This document shows, one piece after another, positions 2,887 to 29,874 of a stretch of 64,000 nt of DNA. Origin of the DNA: Planctomycetota bacterium. Its GTDB lineage: Bacteria > Planctomycetota > UBA1135 > UBA2386. Made by a program: the position numbers and the translations under genes. Location of the stretch: assembly GCA_965228735.1 (NCBI GenBank), contig OZ245838.1, positions 3,008,001 through 3,072,000 on the forward strand, read 5' to 3'. Under the pieces are notes generated by a model that saw nothing but the letters and a program-made list of their open reading frames with translations, searched no databases and had not been told where the DNA came from. How positions within the stretch are numbered: the stretch's first letter is position 1; each line of letters begins with the position of its first letter.

Positions 2887-5553
2887 TCACAGCGCGATGT
2901 CATTGACATCGTCGTAGCGCAACTGCAGCGGGATCCGGTGGACGACCTCGTCGTCGTCGTTCAGCAGCTGCAGTTCGACCGCCGTGTCCGGCACCTGGTA
3001 GACGGGTGAGCCACCCGATCGCACGGCCAGCCGGCGGAACGAGGAGATGACGTCCGGGCGGTGGACCGTGGTCACGATGGCCTGGCCCGCGGCATCCACG
3101 ACCTGCAGCTGCGTCACGCCGGCGGGGAACGTTCCGACGAGGCGGAACTTGCCCTGGCGCGCGACGACGATGCGCCCGTCGGCCCCGGGCGCGGGCACGT
3201 CGTGCGTGCCATCGACGATCCCGGGGCCGGTGAGCCACAGCCGCACCCCGCGCTGCGGACAATCGGTCACGCGCCACCGCCCTGCTGCATCGGTGCTCCC
3301 GGCCCGCGGCAGGGAGATGAACGTCGAGCTCGACGGTCCGCGCTCCGTCGTCGCGGTCACCGCGACCCGCACACCCTCGACCGGCTGGCCGAAACGGTCG
3401 ACGACCATGCCCGACAGCTCCGGCAGGATCGCGTCGACCGGCGCGCGCAGCACGACGTCGGTCGACCCGGCGGCAATCGGACCCGACTCGATCACGAGCA
3501 GCGACGTCGGTTCGACGATACGCAGCGAATACTCGCGCGGCAGGAGCGAGCCGATCTCGAAGGACCCGTCCGCGCCCGTCAACCACTCGCCGCCGCGCTG
3601 CCGCCCGTCGAGCCAGGCCTCGAGCGAACCGGTGAACGTGCCCCACGTCGTGCCGTCGTCGAGATAGACGTTGGCCTTCGCGAGTGGCTCGCCGTCCGGA
3701 CCGAGTGCGCGGCCACGGATCGTGAGCGGCTCGCCGCCGAGCGTCAGTGTCAGGTCCCGCCCGGCCGCGCGGTCGGCGCGCAACCGCGGCGCCAGCCCGT
3801 CCATGACCGCCGGCTGGAAGCCGACGAGGTGCGCCGTCACGGGTCCATCGAACCCGCTGCCGCCGATCTCGAACTCGAACCGCCCGTTCGCGTCGGCGGT
3901 CGCTCCCGTGCTGCCGAAGCGCACGTAGGCCTCGGCCGCGGGTCGACCGTCCGCGTGCCGGACGACGCCGGACACGATGGTGCGCTCGCTCGCCGGCGCG
4001 GCCCGCAGGGTCCAGGTGACGGGCGGCACGACCTCGTCCGCCGGAGTCGACAGCGTCACGTGACCGCGCTTCTGCGCCGTGACCCGCAGCAGCGCGTGGG
4101 CCGGAACCGTCCCGAGGTCGAACGTCCCGTCCGCGCTCGAGCTGTCGCTGAACGATCGATACCCCGACGAGTGCTCGAACCGCTGCGCGATGCCGGGCAG
4201 CGACTCGATGCTGTAGCCGACGCTGACGTACGCATCGTCGATCCCCGCCCCGTGGTCGTCGACGATGCGACCCGCAACGTGAACGGCCGGCCCGACGATC
4301 ATCGTCACCTGGCGGTCGTTCGGCAGCACGCCGTAGCCGTAGAGGATCCAGTCCGTCCCTGCGATGCGCAGATACTCGGCTTCGTCCGTGCCGACGATCT
4401 CGAACTGCCCGCGGCCATCGGTCGCGGCGCGCGGCCGCGTCGCCGTGCCGAGGAGCAACTGCTCGACGAACTCCGCATCGTGGCCGAACTGGCTCGCGAA
4501 ATGACGCCGCGCGGGTTCGATGGTGCGCAGCTGCTGCAGGTGGCCAGGCTCGAGCGTCATCGACATGTTCGGCCAACGCAGCTCGTTGCCGACGAGCTGC
4601 GGCAACTTCGGATCGAAGTGCACGACCTCGATGCCGGGCAGCGGCCGACCATCGACGGTCAGCACCTGACCCGCGAAGCGACCGCCCTCGGTCGGCGCGT
4701 CGACGTCCGTAGTCGATTCCGCAGCGGTCGCGACCGCTTCCCGCGTGGGTCTCGGATCCGCCGCGACGTCGGCGCGTTGGACGTTCGCCGCCGCCGTTGC
4801 CGTGGACCGGCCGGTCGAATCCGGCACGGGCTCGCGCCAGTCGACGCCGATGACTTCGAGACCGAGAACGAGCGCCAGCACGGCGCCCACGAGCGGCAAC
4901 ATCCACTTCATCGTGAGGCTCCCCAGGAGAACGATCATGGGAACGCCAGCACCGGCCGCAGCAGCGGTCGCCTTCGCCGCCCCGCGGGCGGAGAACAGCG
5001 GCAGCAACGCGGCACACCAGGCCTGCCGGTCGCCGAACTCGTCGTCGAGCCGCGCCCGCATGCGCTCGAGCCCGCGCTGGAGCTGCGTGCGCACCGTGTT
5101 CACGGGGCGGTCGAGACGTTCGGCGATCTGCCGCGGCTCGAGGTCGTCGAAGAAGCGGAGCAGCACCACGGTGTGATACGGCTCGTCGAGCTCGAACAGC
5201 TCGTCGACGAGGCGCTTGTGCGCGGCCGCGCGTTGCGCGGCCTCGGCCGGATCGTCGCTCGGGTCGTGCGCGCGAGCGGCCACCGATTCGGCGGCGACCG
5301 TTGCCTCACGACGACGACGACGACCGTCCTGGCGACCAAACCCGCGCGCGGCGTTCTTCGCGACCCGCGCGAGCCAACCCTTGGGATTGGTCAACGCGCG
5401 GGGCGGCCGCGTCATGGCCTCGAGCATCGTCTGCTGCGCGACGTCGTCGGCGCGCGAAGGATCGGCCACGAGGCTGCGCGCGAGCGCGCGGACCCAGTCC
5501 TGGTGGGCGAGCAGAGTGGCGATGGTCGAATCGGTTCCGGTCATGGCGTTCAC
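2887..5553 (-). CDS. ECF (sigma-70 family) sigma factor fused to a TM helix and extracytoplasmic carboxypeptidase-regulatory-like repeats
   Basis: N-terminal region 2 'WVRALARSLV.D...ADDVAQQTMLEA...GWLARVAKN' and region 4 'LDEPYHTVVLLRFFDDL...IAERLDRPVNTVRTQLQRG', then a TM segment 'WMLPLVGAVLALVLGL' and beta-sandwich repeats. Start is GTG 5553 or ATG 5544. Confidence 0.85.
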   Translation of the reverse strand: MNAMTGTDSTIATLLAHQDWVRALARSLVADPSRADDVAQQTMLEAMTRPPRALTNPKGWLARVAKNAARGFGRQDGRRRRREATVAAESVAARAHDPSDDPAEAAQRAAAHKRLVDELFELDEPYHTVVLLRFFDDLEPRQIAERLDRPVNTVRTQLQRGLERMRARLDDEFGDRQAWCAALLPLFSARGAAKATAAAAGAGVPMIVLLGSLTMKWMLPLVGAVLALVLGLEVIGVDWREPVPDSTGRSTATAAANVQRADVAADPRPTREAVATAAESTTDVDAPTEGGRFAGQVLTVDGRPLPGIEVVHFDPKLPQLVGNELRWPNMSMTLEPGHLQQLRTIEPARRHFASQFGHDAEFVEQLLLGTATRPRAATDGRGQFEIVGTDEAEYLRIAGTDWILYGYGVLPNDRQVTMIVGPAVHVAGRIVDDHGAGIDDAYVSVGYSIESLPGIAQRFEHSSGYRSFSDSSSADGTFDLGTVPAHALLRVTAQKRGHVTLSTPADEVVPPVTWTLRAAPASERTIVSGVVRHADGRPAAEAYVRFGSTGATADANGRFEFEIGGSGFDGPVTAHLVGFQPAVMDGLAPRLRADRAAGRDLTLTLGGEPLTIRGRALGPDGEPLAKANVYLDDGTTWGTFTGSLEAWLDGRQRGGEWLTGADGSFEIGSLLPREYSLRIVEPTSLLVIESGPIAAGSTDVVLRAPVDAILPELSGMVVDRFGQPVEGVRVAVTATTERGPSSSTFISLPRAGSTDAAGRWRVTDCPQRGVRLWLTGPGIVDGTHDVPAPGADGRIVVARQGKFRLVGTFPAGVTQLQVVDAAGQAIVTTVHRPDVISSFRRLAVRSGGSPVYQVPDTAVELQLLNDDDEVVHRIPLQLRYDDVNDIAL

Positions 5554-5648: not shown

Positions 5649-6929
5649 TTACGACCAGGCGTCGAGCAGCCGCCGGCACTCGGCGAGCAGCCAATCGGAC
5701 TCTTCGAACGGCCGCAGGCTGATGTCCTGCCACAGGATGCGCCCCTTCGGATCGACGAGGAACGTGCCGTGCAGCGCTTCGTCCGAGAACTCGTCCCAGC
5801 AGTTCCACTGCTTGAACACCGCGCCCTGCGGGTCGCACAGGACTTCGAAGTGCAGCGGATCGACGCCGTTCTCCTGCGCCGCCTGCCACGCCGCGCGCAC
5901 GGCGTTCTGATCGTCGGTGCCGATCGTCACGACCTCGATCCCGGCGGCGTTGAACTTCGGGGTCTTGGGTTCCAGCTCGACCAGCTGGGCGACGCAGTGC
6001 GCTCAACCAAAGCCGAGGAAGAACACGACGAGCACGGGTTTGCCCGCGTAGTCGGCGAGCTTGCCGCGACCGTTGAGGCCGCGGGGGAGATCGAATGCCG
6101 GGGCCTGCTGCGGCTGCCATTCCAAGCCGTCCTCACTGCCACCCATCAGGACCGTCAGCTTCGACAAGTGGCCGTCCGGGAGCCAAAGCCGTGGGAAGTG
6201 CAGCTGCGGATGCCGCGGCAGCCGCGGCGCCACCCGCGTGTTCAGGTCCAGGCGCGCACTACCGAGGCCGCCCACGGACTCGCTGTAGCCGGGAACCAGG
6301 AACGGCATCGCGGCCATCCGCCGCATGTAGCCGTTGGCCGCCGAGTAGAACGCTTCGAACGTCGCCAGCGATGGTGACGAGTCACCATCGCAGCCCGCCC
6401 TCGTCTTGGGCCCCAATGTTCGAGCCTGCTCGAATCCCGCGAGCCTCGCGGCCAACGAGCCGTCGATCTCGCGCAGCCGCGCAATCAGCGTCTCGGCACG
6501 CTCGACGGGCTCCTTCTGAAAACCCGCATCGACGAGCTCCGGCTGCCGATCGACTCCGAAGTACTCCCGATACGCTGCGACGATGGCCGCTTCGGGCGCC
6601 GGCGCCTTGCCGACGAACTTGTTCGCCTGCCACACGAGCCGCGCCGCGCGGTTGTTGTTCGACCGCAACGACAGCGCGAGCCCGAGATGCGCGATCGCCC
6701 GCTCCGGCTCGCGATGCGCGAGCTCGCGGAACATGCGGGCCGCCTCCCAGCCCCAACCCGCGGCGAGCCGTTCGAGGCCCGCGTCGAGCAGTTCGGTGCT
6801 CGACAATGCCGGATCCGGCCGGCGCCACGGCAGGTCCCGCGCCAGATCCTGCGCTCGCAACGGTGCTACCGCGCACGTCACGAGCAGCACGACCGTCGCG
6901 ACGGCGCGGAAACGAACTTCGGTTCGCAT
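5649..6929 (-). CDS. Secreted TPR + AhpC/TSA (redoxin) protein, predicted selenoprotein (U-x-x-C; TGA at 6005-6003)
   Basis: ORFs 6003-6929 and 5649-5930 are in the same frame, separated by a single TGA: ...VLVVFFLGFG-[TGA]-AHCVAQLVELEPKTPKFNAAGIEVVTIGTD...LHGTFLVDPKGRILW. The redoxin fold continues across the TGA, which sits at the first Cys of CxxC, and a hairpin follows. Confidence 0.85.
5972..5988 (-). promoter_or_regulatory. Candidate bacterial SECIS hairpin (CCAGCU-GGUCG-AGCUGG)
   Basis: Perfect 6-bp stem with a 5-nt GU-containing loop at +15 to +31 after the in-frame UGA. Confidence 0.7.
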
Positions 6930-7209
6930 GCGGAAAGCTTAGCCTCGGCGGCGCTTCCGACCACCGGCGCCGCCGTCACGATCGCGTCCCGAAACCTTAC
7001 CGTGGCACGCCGCTATAGTCGGGCGCACTTGCCGGCACTCGCGCCGGCCAACCTCGTCCCTTCTCGCCCCATCGTGCCGGACCGCCCTCCGAGGCGGCGC
7101 GCGGCCACTTTTCTCAGAATCCGACAACTTCGCGAACCGGTCCCGACACCGATGTTCCGAAGCGGCCCCCTCGAAGGCCACTCGCCCCCGATTCTCCCGA
7201 TATCTACCG

Positions 7210-8931
7210 ATGCGGATACCCCTATCTCTCGCCGGCCTTCTCCTGGCCAGCTCTCCCGCGCTCGCGCAGACGCTCGTCCTGCTCGGGGCGCAATCGCCCG
7301 GCGCCGAGCCCAACCACGACGACCCGTACGTGCTCGTCCAATCGCGACCGTGGTCGTCGCCATCGTTTCCGGCAGGGCTCGTCGGCGATCTGCGAACGGT
7401 CAGGTTCACGGGCCACGTCGTGCCCGACGTCATCACGATCATGAACCAGCGCGTCGTGCTGTGCGACGCCCCGGGCATTCACGACACGTGCGGCTGGCTG
7501 ACGCCCACCGGGCAGGACCCGGTCTACGCGGTGGCCGCGCTGCCCGGCCACGGCGTCGCCGGCGGTGATCACCCGACACTCGACGCCATCCTGACCGCGA
7601 CGAGCAATGGCCTCGTCCGCCTTCGGATGGGAAGCGCCGCCGTGGTCTCCGCACCAGTCGCCGACGCGACCTGGAACGACGTGCGCATGCTCGCCACCCA
7701 CCCGGATGACGCCACCGTCGTGTACGGCGTGACTTCGTCGGGCGCGGGCCGGATCGGGACGTACGACTCGATCACCGACGACTTCGTGTCGACCTCGCCC
7801 GCCGCTTTCGATCACTCGACGAGCACGGTCATCGACATCGAGTGCGTGAACTGGGACAACGACAGCAACGGCGAGAGCGAGGTCGCGGTCCTCACGGTCG
7901 ACGGTCTCTTCGTGCACGATCGCCTCGGGGCCGTCGTCGCGTCGTTCCCGTTCGTGACGACGATGGCCGCCGACATCGCCCGATTGCACTCGGGCGCCAA
8001 CGCGGTGGACGATCCCGGCACGCCGTCGATCACCGAAGTTCCCGAGAGCATCGCCTGCCTGCGGCCGGCCGCCGGTGGCGGCAGCGAGCTCGCGCTCTTC
8101 AGCTCGTTCGAGACCCAGAGCGTGCCGCTGAACGGCGAAAGCTACGTCGGCGTCGTCGCCGGTGACTGGAGCGGTGACGGCAACGAGGAGCTCGTGCTCT
8201 CGACGTCCCAGAACATCTACGTCTCGGTGTTGACGAACCATGCCGCCGGCAGCGGCGCGACCGACTTCTTCTACGGCGCTGCGACCGCGTTCCACGTCGC
8301 CGTTGCAGCAACGGCCAACCGGGCACACAACGGCTCCGCCGGCGTCATGGCCGACTTCGACGCCGATGGCGACCAGGACCTGTTCGCGGCGCTCGCGATC
8401 GAGAATCCGGGCGGCGAGAGCAGCGCGCCAGCGTACTCGCTCGTCGACAGCAAGCTGATCCACGTCGAGCCCAACGCCACACCGCTGTATCCGGTCGACA
8501 TCGCCTACACCGAGGACATTCACCAGATCCACGGCCAGCTGCACTTCGAGTTCGACGCGCCGGGCGGATCGAGCACGCATACGGAGATCGTGCTGTGGCC
8601 GGTGGTCGACGGCCAGATCGACATCACCCATTCGCAGCGGCGTTCCGCGCGCGTGCCCAACGGCCCCCCGGGAACGCGAATGCGGCAGACGATCGACATC
8701 GACCGCAGCTTCCTCGTGATTCACGAAGCGCAGTACGCCTGTATGGTGCGACCGATCAGCATGGCCAACGACAAGGTGACCGACGTCACGATGGCCACGC
8801 TGTTCGTGACCGGTTTCGGCTACCCGAAGGACGGCAACGGCAACCTGACGCCGCCGCCGAGCCCGCCGCCGCCGAGCGAACCCCTGCCGCCAGGCGACGA
8901 TCCCGAAGACCCGCCGTCGAACGGCGGTTAA
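7210..8931 (+). CDS. Secreted FG-GAP/VCBS-repeat protein with Pro/Asp-rich C-terminal tail
   Basis: Signal peptide MRIPLSLAGLLLASSPALA; repeats 'NWDNDSNGESEV', 'GDWSGDGNEELV', 'ADFDADGDQDLF'; tail PPPSPPPPSEPLPPGDDPEDPP. Confidence 0.75.
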   Translation: MRIPLSLAGLLLASSPALAQTLVLLGAQSPGAEPNHDDPYVLVQSRPWSSPSFPAGLVGDLRTVRFTGHVVPDVITIMNQRVVLCDAPGIHDTCGWLTPTGQDPVYAVAALPGHGVAGGDHPTLDAILTATSNGLVRLRMGSAAVVSAPVADATWNDVRMLATHPDDATVVYGVTSSGAGRIGTYDSITDDFVSTSPAAFDHSTSTVIDIECVNWDNDSNGESEVAVLTVDGLFVHDRLGAVVASFPFVTTMAADIARLHSGANAVDDPGTPSITEVPESIACLRPAAGGGSELALFSSFETQSVPLNGESYVGVVAGDWSGDGNEELVLSTSQNIYVSVLTNHAAGSGATDFFYGAATAFHVAVAATANRAHNGSAGVMADFDADGDQDLFAALAIENPGGESSAPAYSLVDSKLIHVEPNATPLYPVDIAYTEDIHQIHGQLHFEFDAPGGSSTHTEIVLWPVVDGQIDITHSQRRSARVPNGPPGTRMRQTIDIDRSFLVIHEAQYACMVRPISMANDKVTDVTMATLFVTGFGYPKDGNGNLTPPPSPPPPSEPLPPGDDPEDPPSNGG

Positions 8932-9042: not shown

Positions 9043-11451
9043 TCAGCGCGGCGCGGCAACGTCCAGTCCCGTGACGCGCATCCCGGCGAAGTAATAGGGC
9101 TCCGCCCGGCCGGGCGCGCGGGCAACGGCACGCCGGGCCTCGAACATCGCCGCGCTGAACGTCTGCCCTTCGCTCCACCGCTGCAGTGCGCCAGCGAGCA
9201 GGTCGCGCGTCGCGCCGACCGACAGATCACCATGCGCGAGCGCCACACAGTCGGCGCCGGCGAGCAGGAACGCGCCGCCCAGATGGTTCACCCCACCGTC
9301 ACCGAGCCGGGACGGGCCCGCTGCTGCGCCGCAGACGCCGAGCATGACGAGCGGTGGCGCTGCAAGACTCTCGACACCATCGGGGAAGACGGGCTCCGCG
9401 CCAGCGAGCAGCACGCCGGCCGGTCGCTCGCGACGATAGTCGTAGACCCCGTGCGAGAACACGCAGAGGGCGCGCGCCGCAGCCGTCTCGCGATCGCGCA
9501 GAGCCGCCGGCGTCGCCCGCGCGCCCCAGAGCGCGCGCACACGATCCGCAGCGAACGGTGCCGTGAACCGCGACCGCCGCGCCGCCGACATGCCGATCGG
9601 TTCGACACCCCAGCGCGCAGCGGTCTCGACGTCGAACTCGGGATCCCCCACGACCGTCAGGTCCTTGCCATGGGCCGGCGCGCCCTTGGCGGCGCGGGCT
9701 TCACGGCGGAGCCGGAGCGCCTGCCCGACGGCGACCGACGGCAGGAAGCGCATCGGTGTCTGCAGGCACCACCAGCCGTCGCTCCACGGCAGCAGCTGGA
9801 ACGTGCGGCTCGACAGCTCCGGGCCGACGAGCACGACCTCGCGCCAGCCCGCGACCCGCTCGCGCACCGCCGGCGGCAGCAGATAACCCGCCACCCGCGT
9901 CGCGATCTCACGCACCGGCACCCCCGACGGGCGGCGGTCGAGACTGTCGCGCAGCGCGTAGGCATCGGGCCAGAACGCCCGCCCGAGCGGCAGCGTGTGA
10001 TGCTCCCCGCCGTTCTCGTCGATCAGGAGCAGCGACGCGGACCACGGGCTGAACACGAACATCAGCAGGCCGCCGCCGCTGGGGACCAGGCTGCGCGCGA
10101 CGTCCAGGCCGACCGGCGCGCCATCCGCGACGAGCCGGCGGGACAGGGTGCCGAGCGCGAACGCCGCCTCCATGTGGCCGAACGCGGCCGCGATCCCGCC
10201 ATCCCCTCCGGCCGTCGCCCGATCGAGCTCGAGCAACGTGCCGAGCAACACCCGCTGGTTGCCGTACTGCAACGCCCCTCCGCCGCCATGGCGCACCGGC
10301 CGCCGCCGCCAGGACTCGAGCCAGTCCCGGGTCGCCCGTTCGAGGTCACGATGCAGGGCGCGCAACTCGGCGCGCGGCCGTGCCGCGGCGAGCGCGGTAC
10401 GCGCGCGCAGGGCCAGGATCTCGGCGTCGGTCCTGGTCGGCTCCGTCGATTCGCCGAACAACTCGTCGAGCATCCGCTCCGCGCGCTCCGGATCGCCGAG
10501 CTCGAGACAGATCTCGACCGCGATGATGCCGGCGCGCAAGGCACTGCCACCGAGCAAGCGGACGCGCAACTTCAACAGGTCGTCTAGCACACTCGAGAGC
10601 GCCACGGCGTCGGCCGCGAGCTGATAGCGCGCGAGCAGCAAGCGATACTCGAGATCGGTGCGCTGCGACTCGTTCAGCCCGGCGAACGCAGAATCGGCGA
10701 GCGCGCCCCGAGCTCGCTTCTGCACGCGATCCGTTCGCCCGAGCGCGAGCTGGACATCGAGCTCGAGCACGAGCACGTAGTAGCGCCACCCCAGATCGTC
10801 CTTCACGAGCTCGGCGAGGGCTTCGAGGTCCCCGAACGCGCGGTCCGGCAGCCCGAGATCGAGATGGCAGCGAATCCGTTCGGTTCGCAGCTGCTGCCAC
10901 ATGTAGCGCGTCAGCGCGCCCCTCGAGCCCGCCTGCACCAGGCCCTCGTCCGCGGCCGCGAGCAGCTCGAGCCCTTCCCATGGTCGTTCTTCGAGCCGAA
11001 CGACGCTCGCCTGGTAGACCCGGGCGAGCGGGTGATACTGCTCGACCGGACTCGCGAGCACCGCCCGACAGCTCGCGCGCGCGACGTCGTAGGGCGCCTT
11101 TCGCAGGTCGGCGTCGATCTTGCCGATATGCGCCCGCACGGCGGCCACGGCCTCGGCCGACGGCTGCTGCGCTTCGGGCCCGACCGATGGTTGCTCGGTC
11201 TCGGCGCTCGCCGATGGCTTCGGCGCGGCCTCGACCGGCTCACCCCGATCGAACGCGCCGAGGATCGCAGCGCCCCAGATGCCCGCGCCGAGGACGACGG
11301 CGGCGGCGAACAGAACGCCGGCTCGGCCCGAAACGGACCGCCTCAGAAGAGCGGGTGACTCGCGACGAAGGTCTCGTTCCGGACGAACGCCGTCACCTGC
11401 CAGATCGCCGTCTGCGGCAGGCCGTCCAGTACGGCTTGGGTCAGTCGCCAT
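9043..11451 (-). CDS. CHAT-domain (caspase-like) protease with N-terminal TM anchor and TPR-like helical region
   Basis: Catalytic His 'VFSHGV' and Cys 'LVMLGVCGAA', followed by 'LGGAFLLAGADCV' and the C-terminal 'PYYFAGMRVTG'. N-terminal hydrophobic segment 'AGVLFAAAVVLGAGIWGAAIL'. Start uncertain: ATG 11451 overlaps the upstream gene by about 110 nt. Confidence 0.8.
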   Translation of the reverse strand: MATDPSRTGRPAADGDLAGDGVRPERDLRRESPALLRRSVSGRAGVLFAAAVVLGAGIWGAAILGAFDRGEPVEAAPKPSASAETEQPSVGPEAQQPSAEAVAAVRAHIGKIDADLRKAPYDVARASCRAVLASPVEQYHPLARVYQASVVRLEERPWEGLELLAAADEGLVQAGSRGALTRYMWQQLRTERIRCHLDLGLPDRAFGDLEALAELVKDDLGWRYYVLVLELDVQLALGRTDRVQKRARGALADSAFAGLNESQRTDLEYRLLLARYQLAADAVALSSVLDDLLKLRVRLLGGSALRAGIIAVEICLELGDPERAERMLDELFGESTEPTRTDAEILALRARTALAAARPRAELRALHRDLERATRDWLESWRRRPVRHGGGGALQYGNQRVLLGTLLELDRATAGGDGGIAAAFGHMEAAFALGTLSRRLVADGAPVGLDVARSLVPSGGGLLMFVFSPWSASLLLIDENGGEHHTLPLGRAFWPDAYALRDSLDRRPSGVPVREIATRVAGYLLPPAVRERVAGWREVVLVGPELSSRTFQLLPWSDGWWCLQTPMRFLPSVAVGQALRLRREARAAKGAPAHGKDLTVVGDPEFDVETAARWGVEPIGMSAARRSRFTAPFAADRVRALWGARATPAALRDRETAAARALCVFSHGVYDYRRERPAGVLLAGAEPVFPDGVESLAAPPLVMLGVCGAAAGPSRLGDGGVNHLGGAFLLAGADCVALAHGDLSVGATRDLLAGALQRWSEGQTFSAAMFEARRAVARAPGRAEPYYFAGMRVTGLDVAAPR

Positions 11452-12128
11452 TCGGTTGCTTGGATCGCGGACTTCTCGAACCGCGGGGTCGCGGTCGTGT
11501 CCGCGCTGGCGAACACGGCGAGAGTGTAGTCCGTCCCGGGTGGAATGCCGCCCCCGGGCAACTCGAGCGTCCACGAGAGGAGCAGCTCGGCACCATCCGC
11601 CTGGACCCGCAGCACGAGTTCTTCGTCACCGAGGGTCTGGTTATCGTCGTTCGTCGGTTGCGCGGGCCCGGAGAAGACGCCGACCGCCCACAGCAGCAGG
11701 ACAGCGGCGGCCGCCGCGCCCGCGAACATGCCGATGCGCGCCGGGCCGCGCCGCAGCGTCGCGGCCGTCGGTTCCTGGGTCCCGGATCCGCGCACCTCGG
11801 GTTCATCCGCACCGCCCGGCAGCGGCCGAACGGCACCGGTGTCGCCGCCACCGAGGGCGAGCTGCCGCAGGGTCCTCGCAACCGTCGACTCCTCGGCCGA
11901 GCTCGTCGCCATGGCCTCGGCCTCGGCGAGCAGTTCGCGCTCGCGTTCGGCATCGGTCGCCAGCTGACCCTGCACGTCCTGCAATTCGGTGAGCGCCGCC
12001 GCGAACGCGGGGTTCTGCGCGGCCGCGGCCGCAACGTCGGGATCGTCACCCGCACGCTCGCCGGTCACGACGGCCGCGAGCAGCTGCTCCTCGCGATCGG
12101 ACAGTGGTGTTCGTGGTGTTCCGGTCAT
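11343..12128 (-). CDS. Putative single-pass anti-sigma factor
   Basis: ATGA-coupled directly downstream of an ECF sigma. It has an N-terminal helical domain (MTGTPRTPLSDREEQLL...), a TM 'IGMFAGAAAAAVLLLWAVGVF' and a C-terminal beta-rich domain. Confidence 0.6.
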   Translation of the reverse strand: MTGTPRTPLSDREEQLLAAVVTGERAGDDPDVAAAAAQNPAFAAALTELQDVQGQLATDAERERELLAEAEAMATSSAEESTVARTLRQLALGGGDTGAVRPLPGGADEPEVRGSGTQEPTAATLRRGPARIGMFAGAAAAAVLLLWAVGVFSGPAQPTNDDNQTLGDEELVLRVQADGAELLLSWTLELPGGGIPPGTDYTLAVFASADTTATPRFEKSAIQATEWRLTQAVLDGLPQTAIWQVTAFVRNETFVASHPLF

Positions 12129-12724
12129 TCTCCGTCCTCCTCCCTGGACCGGTAGAAACGGCGCAACGAGTCGAGTCCGCGGTAGTACCGCGATTTGACA
12201 GTGTTCGGAGACAGCAGAAGTTGCGCAGCAATCTCGAGAAAAGTGAGGCCCTGGTAGTGCTTCTTCCGGATGACCTGCGCTTCCCCCGGTGGCAACGCGT
12301 CGATCCCCTGTTGCAGCCGCTCGGAGTCGGCGTCGAACTCCGGCGCGGGCGCGGCCAGCTCGGCGACGTCGTCGAGGGAGACGCCGGTCCGCGACCCGGA
12401 GCCGACGCGGCGCAACGCGTTGCGCATCTGGAAGTCGCAGATGCGGAACACCCACGTCTCGAGCGCGGCATCACCGCGATAGTCCGCGAGCCGGCGCCAG
12501 ACGACGGCGAGCACATCCTGCACGATGTCGTCGAGGATCTCGGGCGCGAGGCTCTGACGACGACGGGCCGCGAGGCACTTCACGAACCGTGGGACGCAGT
12601 GCATCCGCTCGATGAACTGGTCGAGCGCGTCGGGCTGGCGGGCCAGAACATCGGCCACGAGCGCGAGATCCGCCGTGGCCGGTGACCGCTCGCCGTCGCC
12701 CGCCTCAGCTCCGGACGCACCCAT
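12125..12724 (-). CDS. ECF RNA polymerase sigma factor
   Basis: 'DDIVQDVLAVVWRRLADYRGDAALETWVFRI' (region 2) and 'ALPPGEAQVIRKKHYQGLTFLEIAAQLLLSPNTVKSRYYRG' (region 4). Start uncertain. Confidence 0.9.
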   Translation of the reverse strand: MGASGAEAGDGERSPATADLALVADVLARQPDALDQFIERMHCVPRFVKCLAARRRQSLAPEILDDIVQDVLAVVWRRLADYRGDAALETWVFRICDFQMRNALRRVGSGSRTGVSLDDVAELAAPAPEFDADSERLQQGIDALPPGEAQVIRKKHYQGLTFLEIAAQLLLSPNTVKSRYYRGLDSLRRFYRSREEDGE

Positions 12725-12835: not shown

Positions 12836-14026
12836 CTACTGCTTCATGAACCGCTCGAGGTCGGCCACGTAGTGGTCGTCCTCATGGAGTGCTATGGCCT
12901 TCTTCGCCGCCTTCACCGCCTTCTCGGTCTGGCCGTTGAGGTGCTGGCACCAGGCGACCGTGTTCCAACAATAGGCCTCGTACTTCGCGAGCTTCTCGGC
13001 GTCGTCGCCGCCTTCCGCTTTCTGGTCCGCGACCTTCTTCTGCATCTTCGTGAGCGCGCTCTCGGCGAGCTGCAGCGCGAACTTCTTCTCCTTGCTCGTG
13101 CGCTCGTCGCCGTTCTCGACGATCCAGCGCGCGACGCCATTCGACCAGTCGACGACCTTGTCGTCCGGGCAGGTCTTCCACGCCGAGTGGAACGCGGCGA
13201 ACGCGGCCTGGTCGTCCTCGCGCTTCAGCTCCATGTTGCCGATCTGCACCCAGGCCTCGTGCCTGGCCTCGGCCGGCTTGACGAGTCGAACGTGCGCGTA
13301 GAGCGGCTCGAGGTCCCACTTGCGGATGCGTTCGGCGCGCTGCGCGTCCGTCTCCTGCATCCCGTCGCCATCCTGGCCGTCGCCGTCGCCGTCGCCGCCG
13401 CCGACGATCTCCCGAATGACGTCCTGCATGCGAACGCGCGCGCCGACGACCGTCTTGCCCTTGCTGTCGATCGTCCGGATCGACTCCATGAGTTCGTCGT
13501 GGCGATCGTCGTTGCCGAGCGCCTGGACCTTGCCCGCGAGGGCCCAGCGCGCCTCGATGTCCTCGGTGCTGCCGTCCTCGTGCTGCTCGATCTGCCGCCG
13601 CAGACCGCGCACGGTGCCCTCGCCCCTCCGGATGCGCCGGAGTTCCGCGTCGAAGTCGGCCACGGGGATGAACCCCTGGATCAGATCGTCGGCCTGACCG
13701 TCGGGCGTCAGGAACAGGATCGTCGGCAGCGTCCGAACGCCGTACTTCTCGAACACGTCCTGCACGCCGTCACCGCCGTGCTTGGCGCTGTAGCACACGA
13801 ACTCGCGCATCGCGCCGGCGGCCTCGTCCGTGCTCAGCGTCTCCTGCCAGAGCTTGCCGCAGTAGTCGCTGCCGTCGGCCCAGCAGTAGACCAGGATCGG
13901 GCGGTCGGACGCCGCCGCGCGCTCGGTCGCATCAGCGAGCGAGTAGACCCAGTCGACGGGCCGGGGCGGCGTCAGCGGCAACGCGGCGGCGAGCAGGAGA
14001 ACGGAGACGAACGGAGTCGGGGTCAT
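12836..14026 (-). CDS. Secreted thioredoxin-like (Thioredoxin_7/SoxW-type, SxxC) + TPR-like protein, paralog A
   Basis: Signal peptide; 'VDWVYSLADATERAAASDRPILVYCWADGSDYCGKLW...YGVRTLPTILFLTPDG'; helical TPR-like C-terminus. Confidence 0.8.
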   Translation of the reverse strand: MTPTPFVSVLLLAAALPLTPPRPVDWVYSLADATERAAASDRPILVYCWADGSDYCGKLWQETLSTDEAAGAMREFVCYSAKHGGDGVQDVFEKYGVRTLPTILFLTPDGQADDLIQGFIPVADFDAELRRIRRGEGTVRGLRRQIEQHEDGSTEDIEARWALAGKVQALGNDDRHDELMESIRTIDSKGKTVVGARVRMQDVIREIVGGGDGDGDGQDGDGMQETDAQRAERIRKWDLEPLYAHVRLVKPAEARHEAWVQIGNMELKREDDQAAFAAFHSAWKTCPDDKVVDWSNGVARWIVENGDERTSKEKKFALQLAESALTKMQKKVADQKAEGGDDAEKLAKYEAYCWNTVAWCQHLNGQTEKAVKAAKKAIALHEDDHYVADLERFMKQ

Positions 14027-14087
14027 CGCTTGGACTTTCTCGGTTGGGAGTGGTGAGGTCGCGCGGCGTCGCGCGATACGTCCTCCG

Positions 14088-14117
14088 AGTTGCCGCGCGA
14101 TCCGCATCGGACTCACG
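14088..14117 (-). promoter_or_regulatory. Candidate ECF promoter, copy 2 (CGTGAGTCC-N13-CGGCAACT)
   Basis: Intergenic, oriented toward thioredoxin paralog A. Confidence 0.65.
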
Positions 14118-14155: not shown

Positions 14156-16684
14156 TCACAACGTGACCCGACCACCCCCGGCCGGCACCGCCGCGCGCCG
14201 CACGATCGCGCCGTCGCGATAGCCCACGACCTGGACGGCCGTCGCCGGCAGCCGGAACGCCTCCGTCCGACCACCGAGGATCGGCACCCGATCCGTGCGC
14301 TGATTCTCGTTCCCGCGCGGGATGTCCACGACGAGCGCCCGCCCCGCGGCGTCGATGACCGCGACGAGCTCGACCGCGCCCGGCTCGACCACTTCGACGA
14401 CGAGCGTGTGCTCGCGCACCAACTGCACCTCGAGACCGCCTGCGATCGCCGCCTCGAGTTCGATCGTGCGGCCGACGTAGCCCGCGCGGTGCAGGCGCAG
14501 ACGCAGATCGCCGACCGGCACGTCGTAGAGGAAGAACTCGCCGTCCGGCCCGGTCACCATCGCGCCGCGGCGGTAGGACTGCCGGAACACCGGGTGGCCG
14601 GCGGCGCTGACCTCGCAGATCGAGAGGTCGATCGTGACGCCGACGCGCGCGAGCGGCCGACCGAGCTCGTCGACGACGCGGCCCCGGAGGCGTTCGTGCA
14701 CCGCGCTGCCGAGCTGCAACGTGACGTGGTCCGCGCCGGCTGCGATGGTCTGCGGGTCGGAGCGCAGCAACGTCTTCTCCTGCCCGGCGCGCACGACATA
14801 GTCGCGGGCGTCGAGCCCCGTGATCTCGAATGCGCCGTCCGCGCCCGTGATGGCAGGCCGCAGCGGCACGCCCCGGTCGCCGAGCAGGTCCTCGACGAAC
14901 TCCGGATGGCGCGCGTTCGGCGACCGACCGTTCGCCGACCGGGAGCGCTCGCCGATGCGACCGAGCGCGGTCTGGAGGCACGTCCGCTCGGCGAACGAGA
15001 ACGGCGTGGGATCCGTGATCCACACGCAGGCATTCCGCACCGGTCGCCCGCGACCGTCGACGACCTGACCGCGGATCGCGCGCGGCCGGTCACCGAGCTG
15101 CAGAACGAGTTCGCCGCGCTCGCGATCGAGGGCCGCCGACCGCGCGATCGACGCGGGCAGCCGCTCGGGCGCGACCGCGATGACGCGGTCGCCGACCGCC
15201 GTCCTCGGCAACCAGAAGCTGCCGGCGTGATCGGTCCGCGTCACGGCGTCGCCGCACGCCACGCGCACGTCACGCGCAGCCGAACCGTCGTGGTCGAGCA
15301 CGGTGCCGACGATCGCGCCGCGCGGCGCTGGTTCCCTGGACAGAACGACCTCGCACGTGGCCGCGGCCGGCAGCGCGGACCGCTCGATGCCGAAGCCCTC
15401 GCGGCGCACGACGAGCTGCGCGCCGGCGATCGCCGGGATCGCAGCGAGATCGAACCGGCCGTCCGCGCCGGTCGTCACCGCGAACGACTCGGTGCGGGCC
15501 GCCGCCACGCGCGCGCCGAACCGCGCGCGGAGTTCGGCGGGCAGCTCGATCGCCACCTCGGCGAGCGCGAGCGGCCGGTGGTTCATATCGACGATGCGCC
15601 CCGCGAGTCGCCGCCGCGGCGCAACGACGACACAGAGATCCGACCGCACCGCCGCCGTGCCCGCGACGGCTGCCAGGACCGTGACGACGTTCTCCGACAA
15701 CGCCGTCACGAAACCGCTGCCCGACGCCGCGAGCTCGAACGCCCCATCGGTGCCCGTCAACGCGATCTTCGTGCCGCGACCACGATCGCGTTCGGGCTCG
15801 AACCGCAGGACGAGGCCGGGCGCCGGCGCACCGTCGACCGACAACGCCACGCCAGCGAGCGCCCGTTCGGGCATCTTGACCGCGCCCCAGTCGATGCCGG
15901 CGTCCGACTGCACCCCGGCCGGAGTGCGATCCGGCATCGCCGGCGCCGGATCCTCGCCCGCCGTGCCCGCGGCGGCGGTCCGGGTCGGCGGCGGCGGCAC
16001 CGGCGTCGGCTCGGCGCTCCGCCACACACCCGTCGACCACAGCGCCAGCGCCGATACGGCAACGGCAGTCACGGCAGCAGTGACGATCGCGACACCAGCC
16101 ACGCTGCTCGACGGCACCACGCGATCGCCCTCGAGCCCGGGCACCAACGTGACGAGCGGCAACAGCGCCTGCCGTCGTTCCGCCGCGCCGCCGTAGCGAT
16201 CGTCGAGCTGACCGCGGAGCTGCTCGAGCCCGCGCTGCAGCCGGGTCTTCACCGTCGCGATCGGCATGGCCAGGGTGCGCGCGATCACGGTCGGCGACTC
16301 GTCGAGAAAGTAGCGCCGCAGCAGCACGAGGCGGTAGTGCTCCGGCATCCCCATCACGGCGTTGACGACCGCGCGATGGGCGTCGACGCGCTCCACGAGC
16401 TCCGCGCTGCTCGGCTCCTCCTCGGGGCGGATGGCCGCGGCCTCACGGCAGGTGCGGCGCTCGTCGCGACGAACGCGCTCCCACAACACGTTCCGCAGGA
16501 CCCGCGACAGCCAGGCGCGCGGCGAACGGATCTCGACGGGATCCGCCTCGAGTGCCGCCAGCATCGTCTCCTGCGCCAGATCGTCGGCGTCATCGGGATC
16601 GCGCACGAGCTGCGCCGCGAGCGCCCGCACCCAGTTCGTGTGTTCGAGCAGGGTGTCGAGCGCGAGTTCGGGAGAACGGGCCAT
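14156..16684 (-). CDS. ECF sigma factor fused to a TM helix and carboxypeptidase-regulatory-like repeats (paralog of 2887-5553)
   Basis: 'LLEHTNWVRALAAQLVRDPDDADDLAQETMLAAL...AWLSRVLRN' and 'MPEHYRLVLLRRYF...IARTLAMPIATVKTRLQRG'; TM 'VAIVTAAVTAVAVSALALW'. Confidence 0.85.
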   Translation of the reverse strand: MARSPELALDTLLEHTNWVRALAAQLVRDPDDADDLAQETMLAALEADPVEIRSPRAWLSRVLRNVLWERVRRDERRTCREAAAIRPEEEPSSAELVERVDAHRAVVNAVMGMPEHYRLVLLRRYFLDESPTVIARTLAMPIATVKTRLQRGLEQLRGQLDDRYGGAAERRQALLPLVTLVPGLEGDRVVPSSSVAGVAIVTAAVTAVAVSALALWSTGVWRSAEPTPVPPPPTRTAAAGTAGEDPAPAMPDRTPAGVQSDAGIDWGAVKMPERALAGVALSVDGAPAPGLVLRFEPERDRGRGTKIALTGTDGAFELAASGSGFVTALSENVVTVLAAVAGTAAVRSDLCVVVAPRRRLAGRIVDMNHRPLALAEVAIELPAELRARFGARVAAARTESFAVTTGADGRFDLAAIPAIAGAQLVVRREGFGIERSALPAAATCEVVLSREPAPRGAIVGTVLDHDGSAARDVRVACGDAVTRTDHAGSFWLPRTAVGDRVIAVAPERLPASIARSAALDRERGELVLQLGDRPRAIRGQVVDGRGRPVRNACVWITDPTPFSFAERTCLQTALGRIGERSRSANGRSPNARHPEFVEDLLGDRGVPLRPAITGADGAFEITGLDARDYVVRAGQEKTLLRSDPQTIAAGADHVTLQLGSAVHERLRGRVVDELGRPLARVGVTIDLSICEVSAAGHPVFRQSYRRGAMVTGPDGEFFLYDVPVGDLRLRLHRAGYVGRTIELEAAIAGGLEVQLVREHTLVVEVVEPGAVELVAVIDAAGRALVVDIPRGNENQRTDRVPILGGRTEAFRLPATAVQVVGYRDGAIVRRAAVPAGGGRVTL

Positions 16685-16696
16685 GGGTATCCGGCG

Positions 16697-16726
16697 GGTC
16701 GCCGCCGCCGCGCCACGGGACTCGCG
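16697..16726 (-). promoter_or_regulatory. Candidate ECF promoter, copy 3 (CGCGAGTCC-N13-CGGCGACC)
   Basis: Ends 12 nt upstream of the ATG of the second sigma fusion. Confidence 0.6.
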
Positions 16727-16747
16727 AACCGGTATTCTTGCAGAACT

Positions 16748-16777
16748 CGTGAGTCCGTCGCCGCTCCGGCGACGACT
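16748..16777 (+). promoter_or_regulatory. Candidate ECF promoter, copy 4 (CGTGAGTCC-N13-CGACGACT)
   Basis: Back-to-back with copy 3 and oriented toward thioredoxin paralog B. Confidence 0.6.
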
Positions 16778-16886
16778 CTCCTGGGTGGCGGTTCCCGTCC
16801 CACCCGCCACGAGACCCCTCCGACCACGCTCCGCCAGGTCCTCCCGCATGCCCAACCACGGCCCACGATCTCTCGTATCTTGCTGC

Positions 16887-18053
16887 ATGCAAGGTGTTTA
16901 CGCGATCATTGGCGCGATCGTCCTGGCCGCCCCGGTGACGGCCGGCCAACAGGCACCGGACGCTGACGGGTCCGCCGGCGCCGCGGGCGCGACGATCGAA
17001 TGGCAGAGCGGCGAACTGACCAAGAGCCTCGCCCGCGCCGAACTCGCGGGGCAGCCGCTGCTGCTCTACTTCTGGATGGATGGCAGCCAGCACTGCCAGA
17101 ACCTCTGGGGCCAGACCCTGACCCAGCCCGCGGCGGTGACCGCGCTCCAGCAGTTCGTGTGCCACAGCGCCGACGTCGCGACGCCGGCCGGCAGCAAGCT
17201 CGTGCAACGGTTCGGCATCAAGACGCTGCCGAGTCTGCTCGTCGTCACGGCGAACGGCGCGGTCGATGACGCGATGCTCGGCTTCGTGCCGCTGGCCGCG
17301 TTCTTGAGCGAGGCGCAGCGCATCACGAACGGCACGGGCACCGTCACCGCGCTGCGGGCCGCCGTCGACGCCGCACCCGACGATCTCGACCGCCGCTTCG
17401 CGCTCGGCCAGAAGCTCGAGTTCGTCGGCGACGAGGCGGCCGGCGACGCGATGTTCCAGTCGATTCGCGCGGCCGACCCCGAGGGCCGCACGACACCGGG
17501 CGCCGAACTGCTGTTGTTCGACATCCGCAATCAGATCCTCGACCGCGCGTCGGATCGGAACGACCCGGCGACGTGGGACCTCGCGCCGCTCTACCGTCGA
17601 CTGCGGCAGACGAAGCAACCAACGGTGCTGTGGAAGGGCTGGAGCTTCCTCTCGCGGATCGAAGGCGAACGCGGCGCGCCGCGCGAACAGGTCGCGGCCT
17701 ACGCCGCGGCGTGGCCGCACGCGCCCGCGGTCGAACGCGACGAATGGGGCTCGAACGTCGTCGAGAACCTCTGGAGCCGCCGCGACACGGTGCGCGCCGC
17801 CGGTCGCAAGCTGGCGCGCGAGATCGCGCGCACGCTCGCCGCACACGCGGACGCGCCGGCCGCTGATCCGGCGGGCAACGGCAGAAAGCCGCCCACGGCC
17901 GAGCAACGCGCGTTTTTCCTCGCGTCCGCGGCGCGCGGCATGGCCCTCGGCGGGCGGCGACGGGCCGCCCTCGACCTCGTCGCCAAAGCTCGCGAACTCA
18001 CGCCCGACGACGCGGCCCTCGAACAGCTGCAGCAGCAGATCGAGCGCCGCTGA
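16887..18053 (+). CDS. Secreted thioredoxin-like (SxxC) + TPR-like protein, paralog B
   Basis: Signal peptide; 'IEWQSGELTKSLARAELAGQPLLLYFWMDGSQHCQNLW...FGIKTLPSLLVVTANG'. Aligns by eye with 12836-14026 (WDL.PLY, G.GTV..LR). Confidence 0.8.
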   Translation: MQGVYAIIGAIVLAAPVTAGQQAPDADGSAGAAGATIEWQSGELTKSLARAELAGQPLLLYFWMDGSQHCQNLWGQTLTQPAAVTALQQFVCHSADVATPAGSKLVQRFGIKTLPSLLVVTANGAVDDAMLGFVPLAAFLSEAQRITNGTGTVTALRAAVDAAPDDLDRRFALGQKLEFVGDEAAGDAMFQSIRAADPEGRTTPGAELLLFDIRNQILDRASDRNDPATWDLAPLYRRLRQTKQPTVLWKGWSFLSRIEGERGAPREQVAAYAAAWPHAPAVERDEWGSNVVENLWSRRDTVRAAGRKLAREIARTLAAHADAPAADPAGNGRKPPTAEQRAFFLASAARGMALGGRRRAALDLVAKARELTPDDAALEQLQQQIERR

Positions 18054-28329: not shown

Positions 28330-28357
28330 ATGGTGTAGAGGGGCCCCTCTACACCAT
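28330..28357. repeat. Perfect 28-bp palindrome between convergent genes
   Basis: ATGGTGTAGAGGGG|CCCCTCTACACCAT; overlaps the radical SAM stop codon. Confidence 0.85.
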
Positions 28358-29500
28358 CTTGCCGTCGTTCTCGTTCGCGTCGGCGCTCGCAGCCGGCTGC
28401 CGCAGCCACTGCTTGTCGAAGTGTGAGTTCGCGACCAGGATGTCGCAGGTTCTGCAGACTTCGGGGTAGTCCCGATCGTTCATCCGGCGACGGAACTCGC
28501 GATACTTCTCGCCATTCCAGATCTCGGCCATCGACTGGTCGTTGACGTTGCCCATGAGCAGCTCGCGCGGGCCGCGGCAACACGGGAACACCTCGCCGCT
28601 GGGCTCGATCTTGACGTAGCTGGTGGCCATCGAGCAGAAGTGCGGGAAGCGCTCGCGCACCTCCTCGAGCATGACCGAGAGGATCTCGGGCGAGATCTCG
28701 CGGACCATCGGCGCTTGCATCGCGACGTTCCGCCGATACGGGTCGTCCATATCGACGTGGAAGATCATCCCGCGCTCGCGCGCGCGGTCGCACGCCCGGT
28801 CGATGTGCGCGATGATCTGCTCCTCGGTGTAGGCGGCGAACACGTTCTGGTCGCGGCAGCGCTCGGCGTTGTCGAGCATCGGCTGGATGCGCAGGTCGGA
28901 GCGCGATTCGACGGCGCCCAGATCGGCGAGGAAGTCGACGAGCTCGTCGAGGTGCTCGACGTTGTCCTTGACGAGAACGGCGACGAAACCAACCGGGATC
29001 CCGAGCTCGGCCGCGGCCGCGACGATCTCCTTCATGTTCGCGACGACCGTGTCGAAGTCGGCGCGGTCGCGCAACATCTCCAGGACTTCCTTCCTCGGGC
29101 TGTCGAACGAGATCCACAGCTTGTGCACGCGGTCGGCCATGTCACGGAACGCCTTGCCGTCGAGCAGCGTCGCGTTCGAGTACATGTTGAGGTAGACCTC
29201 GTGTTCGCGGCACTTCTGCAGCACCATCTTGAAGTTCGCGAGCATCGGCTCCGACAACGCGGACGGGGTCCACACCGACATCGTCGGCAGGATCTCGTCG
29301 AGCAGCTGCACCGCGTCGGCCGTCTTCATCACCTGGACCGGCAGGCCGTCGGCCTGCGCGCACATGATGCAGCGCAGGTTGCAGACGTTGTTGGGCGCGA
29401 ACTCGAGCCACGCCGGCTGTGCCGACCATTCTTCCGTGCGCGTCGCGAGGTCCGCGATCACGGAGTAATAGTTGCGGAGTTCGCGGGCGATTTTGGTCAT
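28349..29500 (-). CDS. Radical SAM protein with SPASM/Twitch domain
   Basis: CNLRCIMC; C-terminal 'FCSMATSYVKIEPSGEVFPCC...MGNVNDQSMAEIWNG...CRTC'. Confidence 0.9.
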   Translation of the reverse strand: MTKIARELRNYYSVIADLATRTEEWSAQPAWLEFAPNNVCNLRCIMCAQADGLPVQVMKTADAVQLLDEILPTMSVWTPSALSEPMLANFKMVLQKCREHEVYLNMYSNATLLDGKAFRDMADRVHKLWISFDSPRKEVLEMLRDRADFDTVVANMKEIVAAAAELGIPVGFVAVLVKDNVEHLDELVDFLADLGAVESRSDLRIQPMLDNAERCRDQNVFAAYTEEQIIAHIDRACDRARERGMIFHVDMDDPYRRNVAMQAPMVREISPEILSVMLEEVRERFPHFCSMATSYVKIEPSGEVFPCCRGPRELLMGNVNDQSMAEIWNGEKYREFRRRMNDRDYPEVCRTCDILVANSHFDKQWLRQPAASADANENDGKMV

Positions 29501-29874
29501 GAACGGTCGGAGGCGGATTGGCAGTCGGGGCGCGGTCGAACCGACGCCCGCTGATGCGAGCCTACGACACCCGATCGGCATCGACGACCCTCACTCTTCG
29601 GCTCGCTACAGCCGGTTCGTCGCGCGAACGCGGCAAAGGTCGATCGCACCGCGTGATCCGTCCGCCGGTCCGGCCCAAAGGCGCGCGCGGCTCCGCCAGA
29701 ATCACGAACCCGTGAACACGGCCCGCCGCAATCCTCGCGAAACTACTTCACCGCCAACCGGATTTCTGCCCTCGTCGGGCGCCGTTCCTGAGGGAGAATG
29801 CTTCCCCGGTTTTGCGATCTCCCGCCACGTTCAGGCGTTCGGCAAGACCGGATGATCTGCCCCTCCAGACTCTC

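Follow-up and report, generated by a model that had tools for sequence, protein, structure and literature searches.

Does a caspase-related protease of the CHAT family, encoded beside a sigma factor of the extracytoplasmic function (ECF) type, act on the protein that restrains that sigma factor? The question is raised by a locus in a 64,000-nucleotide (nt) stretch of DNA from a Planctomycetota bacterium (GenBank assembly GCA_965228735.1, contig OZ245838.1, positions 3,008,001 to 3,072,000), hereafter the window. The original prediction, made from the letters of this sequence, described an operon of an ECF sigma factor, a membrane anti-sigma factor and a CHAT protein with tetratricopeptide repeats (TPR), and proposed that the CHAT protein serves as a dedicated protease on the anti-sigma factor. 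Here we report an analysis of the encoded proteins, their conservation in related genomes, the modelled contact between protease and anti-sigma factor, and the promoter motif associated with the locus. The best-supported reading is that of a conserved four-gene module, in which CHAT is probably a dedicated site-1 protease on the anti-sigma factor, freeing the sigma factor toward a convergent gene for a secreted FG-GAP protein.

The role of CHAT as a site-1 protease of an anti-sigma factor has been proposed for DdvA of Myxococcus xanthus, where it could not be put to the test, since enzyme and substrate form one chain and no trigger is known (PMC11506125). In the locus described here, the separate genes, a candidate bond, an invariant catalytic dyad and a candidate reporter promoter make both binding and cleavage directly assayable. 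If true, the proposed function would assign many caspase relatives of bacteria a role outside defence, and would do so in a phylum with an abundance of signalling genes that lack an explanation.

Proteins encoded by the module

In the window, three co-oriented minus-strand genes encode, in the order of transcription, the ECF sigma factor, a single-pass middle protein and the TPR-CHAT protein (Table 1). They overlap as originally described, by 4 nt (ATGA) and by 109 nt. The extent first given to the module, 9043 to 12724, holds for this triplet and leaves outside a fourth conserved gene with its promoter (7121-8931), which is located on the plus strand, convergent with the CHAT gene and 111 nt away from its stop codon. 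The host genome is a single contig of 7.19 Mb and is 93% complete.

The ECF identity of the sigma factor was confirmed by matches to Sigma70_r2, Sigma70_r4_2 and TIGR02937 above their cut-offs, and every match to an NCBIfam subfamily fell below the cut-off of that subfamily. With a profile built for its own subfamily, a gap between E values of 6e-41 and 2e-32 sets the subfamily apart from other ECF sigma factors. Close relatives of one paralogous sigma factor are mostly labelled Planctomycetota, and every one of them is metagenome-assembled.

The middle protein itself has no match in Pfam or NCBIfam. The profile of its family matched the anti-sigma domain of RslA (3HUG_B) with an E value of 8.5e-5, followed by sub-significant matches to MucA, RseA and RsiW (E values of 0.14-0.39) and to FN3 consensus proteins; in a look-alike cluster, 48% of the members contain zf-HC2. 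The protein has a single hydrophobic helix, in line with the predicted single-pass topology, and runs from an anti-sigma-like domain in the cytoplasm through this transmembrane helix and a linker to an outer domain of the FN3 or immunoglobulin (Ig) type, which matches tandem Ig/FN3-like repeats in giant proteins. The HxxxCxxC motif of zinc-binding anti-sigma (ZAS) domains was found in full in none of the 141 database representatives, and the window copy lacks any Cys; a CxxC remnant occurs in 25 of 86 loci and in 102 of the 141 representatives. The linker is variable except for one spot, which is occupied by Leu (89), Ala (8), Met (6) or Ile (3) in 106 sequences and is followed by Gly in 87 of them, the corresponding counts among the database representatives being 129/141 for Leu and 127/141 for Gly. 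Taken together, the sequence features suggest that the middle protein is likely a class I membrane anti-sigma factor, and we infer from homology and gene position that it binds its cognate sigma factor. The family profile reached 730 clusters at E values of at most 1e-30, some multi-repeat Ig proteins being counted in, and a word-based homologue search with the same alignment returned 3 matches versus thousands by HMMER, which is a limit of its sensitivity. Kinship of the outer domain with DUF928 was rejected, with a DUF928 match in none of 26 members and no paper found that contains both terms.

The CHAT protein matches PF12770 at residues 516-791 with 77.7 bits, compared with a cut-off of 24, and carries a His667-Gly668 and Cys707 dyad. 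Its fold model has a predicted local distance difference test (pLDDT) score of 86, and helical repeats make up the N-terminal half. The closest fold is that of DdvA (8ROT, E value of 9e-13), followed by the craspase protein Csx29 and separase, and the best sequence match is also DdvA. Among 93 intact CHATs, 17-40% identical to the window copy and aligned after the truncated or broken sequences of loci L049, L069 and L079 had been excluded, the His and the Cys are the only invariant columns. An N-terminal h-region is present in 89 of these 93 relatives; by a loose pattern, 67 have a signal-peptidase-like site, and 63 end in a membrane anchor at the C-terminus. The window copy has no C-terminal anchor and may be held by its N-terminus, because its N-terminal helix is long. 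The predicted TPR-like protein with an intact His-Gly/Cys dyad was therefore found as described; of its N-terminal anchor the helix is there, which may either stay in place as an anchor or be removed as a signal peptide. In either topology the TPR-CHAT part is predicted to lie outside the inner membrane, as originally proposed, and by these export signals the protease and the outer domain of the anti-sigma factor would share one side of the membrane.

Conservation of the module in Planctomycetota

The host genome (G000, contig C1) contains three CHAT matches, all in the same four-gene layout; the paralogous modules are at C1:1743914-1749467 and C1:6978207-6984033. In the clade to which the second of these belongs, CHAT has His-Ala and is anchored C-terminally, the FG-GAP tails end in LLPW, and the promoter motif described below has no match. 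CHAT genes were found in 54 of 61 genomes in the first search for relatives, and in 23 of 40 loci picked by CHAT a same-subfamily sigma factor is followed by a small membrane gene and then by CHAT; these 40 loci were taken from 150 listed matches of 232, and the criterion was an open frame roughly 765-1070 aa long. Since this sample had been selected by CHAT length, the conservation was evaluated from the opposite side in two reverse tests.

In the first reverse test, a search of 301 genomes of the class with the middle-protein profile gave a match in 174, and 60 of the best listed matches outside the training set were used, some near contig ends being skipped. A sigma factor lies directly upstream in all 60 loci. 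Where the sequence extends far enough, CHAT is the next gene in 50 of 56 loci and a convergent FG-GAP-like gene is present in 41 of 48. Among the six loci that missed CHAT, one has an adjacent CHAT under the threshold, one a CHAT 3.7 kb further on, beyond inserted genes, and four have no CHAT nearby. In several loci scored as lacking FG-GAP, another signal-peptide protein occupies that slot. In the second test, a match to the profile of the sigma subfamily at an E value of 1e-30 was present in 37 of 401 genomes of the phylum, and 20 sigma-picked loci outside the class, from genomes labelled with the same phylum only, had the middle gene in 20, CHAT in 18 and a convergent FG-GAP gene in 17 cases. 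The neighbourhood survey thus bears out the expected conserved triplet of sigma, anti-sigma and CHAT. A genome scan with a single sigma sequence as the query found no match. Individual loci deviate from the common order: ABC exporter-like genes are inserted between anti-sigma and CHAT in L061, an FG-GAP-like gene occurs without CHAT in L050, and the FG-GAP gene of L124 is upstream and divergent.

The four genes co-diverge across 76 full modules, with Spearman coefficients of 0.40-0.60. In all four gene trees the window copy groups with modules from other genomes and not with its own paralogues, and each of the three copies in the host genome clusters with modules of other genomes.

Predicted complex of CHAT and the anti-sigma linker

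The bond between Leu166 and Gly167 was recorded as the candidate cut site ahead of the complex prediction, in which CHAT residues 95-802 were modelled with anti-sigma residues 153-261, each with an alignment of 93 rows. The predicted complex scored 0.79, compared with 0.00 for the best of three controls. The score mark is reached by 116 of 157 solved pairs and by 2 of 215 mismatched pairs, a calibration that is only rough with our own alignments. At least 93% of the contacts agree between runs, and the pLDDT of the partner is at least 82. The modelled interface involves the segments around His667 and Cys707, which are contacted by linker residues 160-170; CHAT strand 742-749 pairs with linker residues 161-166, and the FN3-like domain sits against TPR residues 202-246. 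In this modelling, of a kind suggested in the original prediction, CHAT is predicted to bind its partner, with the outer linker placed in its active site in a substrate-like pose. Cleavage of the linker would likely occur at or near Leu166-Gly167.

CHAT start codon within the anti-sigma gene

The 4-nt overlap between the sigma and anti-sigma genes recurs as the same -4 overlap in 75 of 106 modules. In the longer overlap that follows it, the CHAT ATG is formed by the Glu226-Trp227 codons of the anti-sigma gene, and the hydrophobic region of CHAT straddles the anti-sigma stop codon. CHAT is in the -1 frame relative to the anti-sigma gene in 91 of 96 modules. In 34 of 71 loci, versus 8.7 expected, an A immediately precedes the codon of the conserved Trp227, with varied preceding amino acids, and most codons neighbouring Trp227 have A as their last base in about 6% of cases; in distant loci, A stands at this single site in only 3 of 15. 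Over a broader region, a -1-frame ATG occurs in the last 170 nt of the anti-sigma gene in 48 of 73 class loci, versus 9 of 73 for a mid-gene stretch, the corresponding numbers in distant loci being 12 of 18 versus 2 of 18, and -1-frame stop codons are depleted (10/91 versus 36/91). From these overlap statistics of the family, the CHAT start is buried inside the anti-sigma gene, here at position 11451, and by the same counts it is under selection there. Such a buried start would fit translational coupling of CHAT to the anti-sigma factor.

Two other ways of producing CHAT were considered and rejected. A CTG start at the anti-sigma stop codon is not needed, the NTG/NTA found there being a by-product of the stop codon, and many signal peptides would end up too short. 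A frameshift fusion into a DdvA-like chain disagrees with the selection of an ATG for CHAT itself and with the scarcity of slippery heptamers, found in 3 of 106 modules.

FG-GAP gene and promoter motif

The product of the fourth gene of the module has a signal peptide and FG-GAP repeats that match weakly; FG-GAP_3 was found in 51 of 60 members of its family. Its model combines a beta-propeller and an Ig-like sandwich with a Pro-rich tail that is disordered, and matches the heads of integrin alpha chains and other propellers in general terms only.

The first searches for a promoter, by k-mers and Gibbs sampling, gave no signal above shuffles, and gapped-pair counting on more loci produced a motif with AAC ... 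[CG]GAC boxes. In a split-half evaluation, 22.9% of held-out FG-GAP upstream regions had a site of at least 12 bits, versus 2.4% of shuffles. The site upstream of the FG-GAP gene in the window scores 16.2 bits when the loci of the host genome and of a genus mate are excluded from training, and sites of at least 12 bits precede 1.4% of 4237 roughly called host genes. The motif was found before 12 of 106 sigma genes, on the opposite strand in 4 of them. The sigma factor of the module likely reads the site at 7121-7150.

Several other high-scoring sites were noted in the host genome. Those at C1:652542, 1140282 and 4104455 are intergenic, 60-100 nt before genes that are candidate regulon members, and two of the three genes encode signal-peptide proteins. 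An identical 31-nt sequence scoring as a promoter is present in at least 10 places (e.g., C1:340083, 2171515 and 6839014); it is probably an insertion-element end, and one copy is near a transposase-like open reading frame (ORF).

Proposed mechanism and alternative explanations

In the proposed mechanism, the membrane anti-sigma factor would hold the ECF sigma factor, and the TPR-CHAT, predicted to be exported, would grip the outer FN3-like domain of the anti-sigma factor and cut its linker at or near Leu166-Gly167 as site 1. By analogy with known systems, site-2 cleavage by RseP and degradation in the cytoplasm would then free the sigma factor, which would in turn drive expression of the convergent FG-GAP gene. 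Elsewhere in the host genome there is an M50 gene of the RseP-like type. The TPR superhelix is the likely sensor, on which the secreted FG-GAP protein may feed back, and the buried start codon would couple the synthesis of the protease to that of the anti-sigma factor. The dedicated protease of the original prediction is supported by the predicted complex with the linker at the dyad.

Several observations weigh against this mechanism. An adjoining CHAT is absent in 4 of 56 loci picked by the middle gene and in 2 of 20 picked by the sigma factor, and the Leu-Gly motif is retained in anti-sigma factors without an adjoining CHAT; its loss in CHAT-less loci, which would have served as a test of function, was not seen, and the motif may therefore be structural. 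The complex model fits a substrate and a securin-like inhibitor alike and does not resolve the scissile bond, and the placing of the peptide in the groove may partly derive from solved complexes of CHAT with substrate and of separase. For DdvA itself, no autoproteolysis was seen, and mutating the dyad was without effect on the phenotype at rest (PMC11506125). The congruence of the gene trees shows inheritance as a unit and not, by itself, co-evolution, because kin share gene order. In a leave-one-out evaluation, the motif preceded only 17 of 76 FG-GAP genes, and none of 10 in one sigma clade, and it is missing before the sigma gene of the module described here (1.8 bits).

The ambiguity of the complex model bears most directly on an alternative that we consider unlikely, in which the outer linker is a securin-like pseudo-substrate that plugs the protease. 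The real substrate would be another exported protein, e.g., the FG-GAP protein, and a signal that separates the two would switch the protease on and at once leave the anti-sigma factor open to other proteases. The predicted complex suits such an inhibitor equally, securin is known to inhibit separase (PMC11506125), translational coupling suggests a stoichiometric pair and not a catalytic excess, and CHAT and FG-GAP are the genes that most often share nearest neighbours (36/76). However, judged by the specificity of the caspase family, the conserved Leu-Gly resembles a cleavable P1-P1' pair, and the FG-GAP tails are variable, with no cut-site-like motif seen and no search aimed at one. The large two-site interface, formed by linker and FN3-like domain, and the coupling of the anti-sigma and CHAT genes would also be compatible with a constitutive cut of the linker during assembly, after which the pieces stay bound to the protease until a signal dissociates the cap, the protease being a maturation enzyme and a shield. 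Anti-sigma factors that are pre-cleaved and stay associated are described in PMC11506125, but in known TPR-CHAT proteases, according to the same source, the geometry of the dyad is an inactive one before a trigger acts, and we regard this explanation as improbable.

The remaining alternatives dispense with a protease acting on a separate anti-sigma factor. If CHAT were a mere co-transcribed output of the sigma factor, with unrelated periplasmic substrates, the linker motif could persist without it, as it does in some sigma/anti-sigma pairs that have no adjoining CHAT; this is hard to reconcile with a score of 0.79 versus 0.00 for a complex with the linker at the dyad and with the selected overlap of the two genes, which makes it highly improbable. 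The -1 frame of CHAT in nearly all modules, open across the junction, would suit a -1 ribosomal frameshift joining anti-sigma and CHAT in one DdvA-like chain. This is barely credible given the selected ATG in the CHAT frame, the rarity of slippery sites and a signal-peptide-like segment at the junction that would be misplaced in a fusion. Beyond site-1 cleavage by CHAT, which we prefer, a more ambitious picture of widespread, multi-copy trans-envelope signalling, with a TPR-gated periplasmic site-1 enzyme of the caspase family that is translated from a start concealed inside the gene of its substrate, a Leu-Gly cut, a feedback loop through the sigma-induced, integrin-alpha-like FG-GAP protein and copy-specific partners, is put forward only tentatively, as a possibility with the balance against it.

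Comparison with known systems

According to PMC11506125, DdvA is the only characterised anti-sigma factor with TPR-CHAT, cleavage of its linker in trans was proposed, RseP acts on DdvA stripped of TPR-CHAT, and DdvA-like fusions were found only in Myxococcota and one Comamonas. The DdvS/DdvA system (PDB 8ROT and 8RW5) shares with the module an ECF sigma factor, an anti-sigma domain of class I (here likely), a single membrane-spanning helix, an outer linker that is flexible and faces the dyad of a periplasmic TPR-CHAT (here predicted) and RseP as the second step (here proposed). It differs in being one chain, whereas here the protease is the product of a separate gene with a stop codon in between and its own selected start, and is predicted to be exported on its own; here, the anti-sigma factor ends in an FN3-like domain, and the window copy has no CHCC zinc site. 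DdvS/DdvA is further associated with an island of clustered regularly interspaced short palindromic repeats (CRISPR) and cyclic oligonucleotide-based antiphage signalling system (CBASS) genes and with a GTAA-n16-CGT promoter (PMC6061681). No such island was found around the three host loci, and the promoter motif here is AAC...CGAC.

The original prediction had pointed to Csx29 as its known parallel. The type III-E craspase (Csx29/Csx30/CASP-sigma; PMC10028731) does share the logic, with a separate TPR-CHAT, a substrate that inhibits a sigma factor (here predicted) and an ECF output, and cleavage by Csx29 lifts the inhibition of a sigma factor by Csx30. The closest precedent is instead DdvS/DdvA, and DdvA is the top match of CHAT in both fold and sequence. 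The craspase is cytoplasmic and switched on by target-RNA-bound Cas7-11, in contrast to the export signals and the lack of a RAMP gene here, and Csx30 does not belong to the class I anti-sigma factors of the membrane, whereas the partner here has a membrane helix. Craspases are described as cleaving after Met or Leu (PMC11506125). The DegS/RseP pathway acting on RseA (cited in PMC10028731 and PMC11506125) is comparable in the outer site-1 cut of a class I anti-sigma factor, in RseP and in the release of the sigma factor, all proposed here, but the site-1 enzyme in the module would be a cysteine protease of the caspase family whose TPR part acts as sensor, and its gene lies in the operon of its substrate and overlaps the substrate gene.

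ECF54 (Casas-Pastor et al., PMC7826278) also has an ECF sigma factor near a TPR-CHAT protein, and in the accessible part of the supplement CHAT is named for this group only. ECF54 is limited to Actinobacteria, has no reported anti-sigma factor, and is associated with a carboxypeptidase-regulatory-like protein, a subtilase and a GTATCAG / CTCC promoter, whereas the relatives here are Planctomycetota, the anti-sigma factor is present, and both the neighbours and the motif are different. The module thus works like DdvS/DdvA and the craspase but belongs to neither, with a protease that is separate and predicted to be exported and with no CRISPR link found. No description of this split, exported form was found in the open-access literature, subscription papers being outside the coverage, and the module is likely the split version of a mechanism for which the only published instance found is the one proposed for DdvA of Myxococcus.

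The independence from CRISPR that had been predicted is supported by a search for RAMP-family genes in the host genome, which found no match, and by a PADLOC analysis of 35 ORFs around the three host loci, in which two weak enzyme-family matches were found, none in the module genes. A weak match to the viperin family (E value of 5e-10) is encoded at 28352-29590 (-), 16 kb off the module, and may be an ordinary radical SAM enzyme.

Features and neighbourhood of the locus

Table 1. Features of the four-gene module, in window coordinates
Feature	Position	Strand	Basis
ECF sigma factor, 199 aa, sigma2 and sigma4 only, distinct Planctomycetota subfamily	12125..12724	-	Pfam, TIGR02937
Likely class I anti-sigma factor, 261 aa	11343..12128	-	Profile match to RslA; start overlaps sigma stop (ATGA)
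Anti-sigma transmembrane helix, residues 134-152	11673..11729	-	Mean hydropathy 2.23 over 19 residues
Anti-sigma outer linker, residues 160-170, candidate cut site Leu166-Gly167	11619..11651	-	Conservation and predicted complex
TPR-CHAT protease, 802 aa, predicted export	9043..11451	-	PF12770, fold model, overlap statistics
Dual-coding overlap, last outer-domain strands of anti-sigma / N-terminal export region of CHAT	11343..11451	-	CHAT in -1 frame
CHAT N-terminal hydrophobic helix, residues 46-64	11260..11316	-	Mean hydropathy 2.34
Predicted catalytic His667 of CHAT	9451..9453	-	Invariant in 93/93 aligned CHATs
Predicted catalytic Cys707 of CHAT	9331..9333	-	Invariant in 93/93 aligned CHATs
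Convergent secreted FG-GAP protein, 573 aa, likely sigma output gene	7210..8931	+	FG-GAP_3, fold model
ECF-type promoter-like site, AAC ... CGAC boxes, 59 nt 5' of FG-GAP start	7121..7150	+	16.2 bits

Neither a sigma-70 promoter nor a useful terminator was found between 6800 and 13000 of the window. The module is flanked by two fusion proteins, at 2887-5553 (-) and 14156-16888 (-), in which an ECF sigma factor is joined to a membrane helix and to long repeats of the carboxypeptidase-regulatory-like type, and such fusions were not seen among the conserved neighbours of the module in relatives. An ARAGORN call of a tRNA-Ala at 14184-14281 (-) falls within a long coding frame and is probably false. 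Just upstream of the sigma gene, 12836-14116 (-) encodes a signal-peptide protein of the thioredoxin-like/TPR type, and a similar-looking protein is encoded at 16362-18053 (+). The gene at 5649-6929 (-) encodes a signal-peptide protein with an AhpC/TSA-like C-terminal domain and contains an in-frame TGA at 6003-6005. The context of this codon, G-*-A-H-C (UxxC), suggests that the product is likely a selenoprotein peroxiredoxin, and selA is present in the genome.

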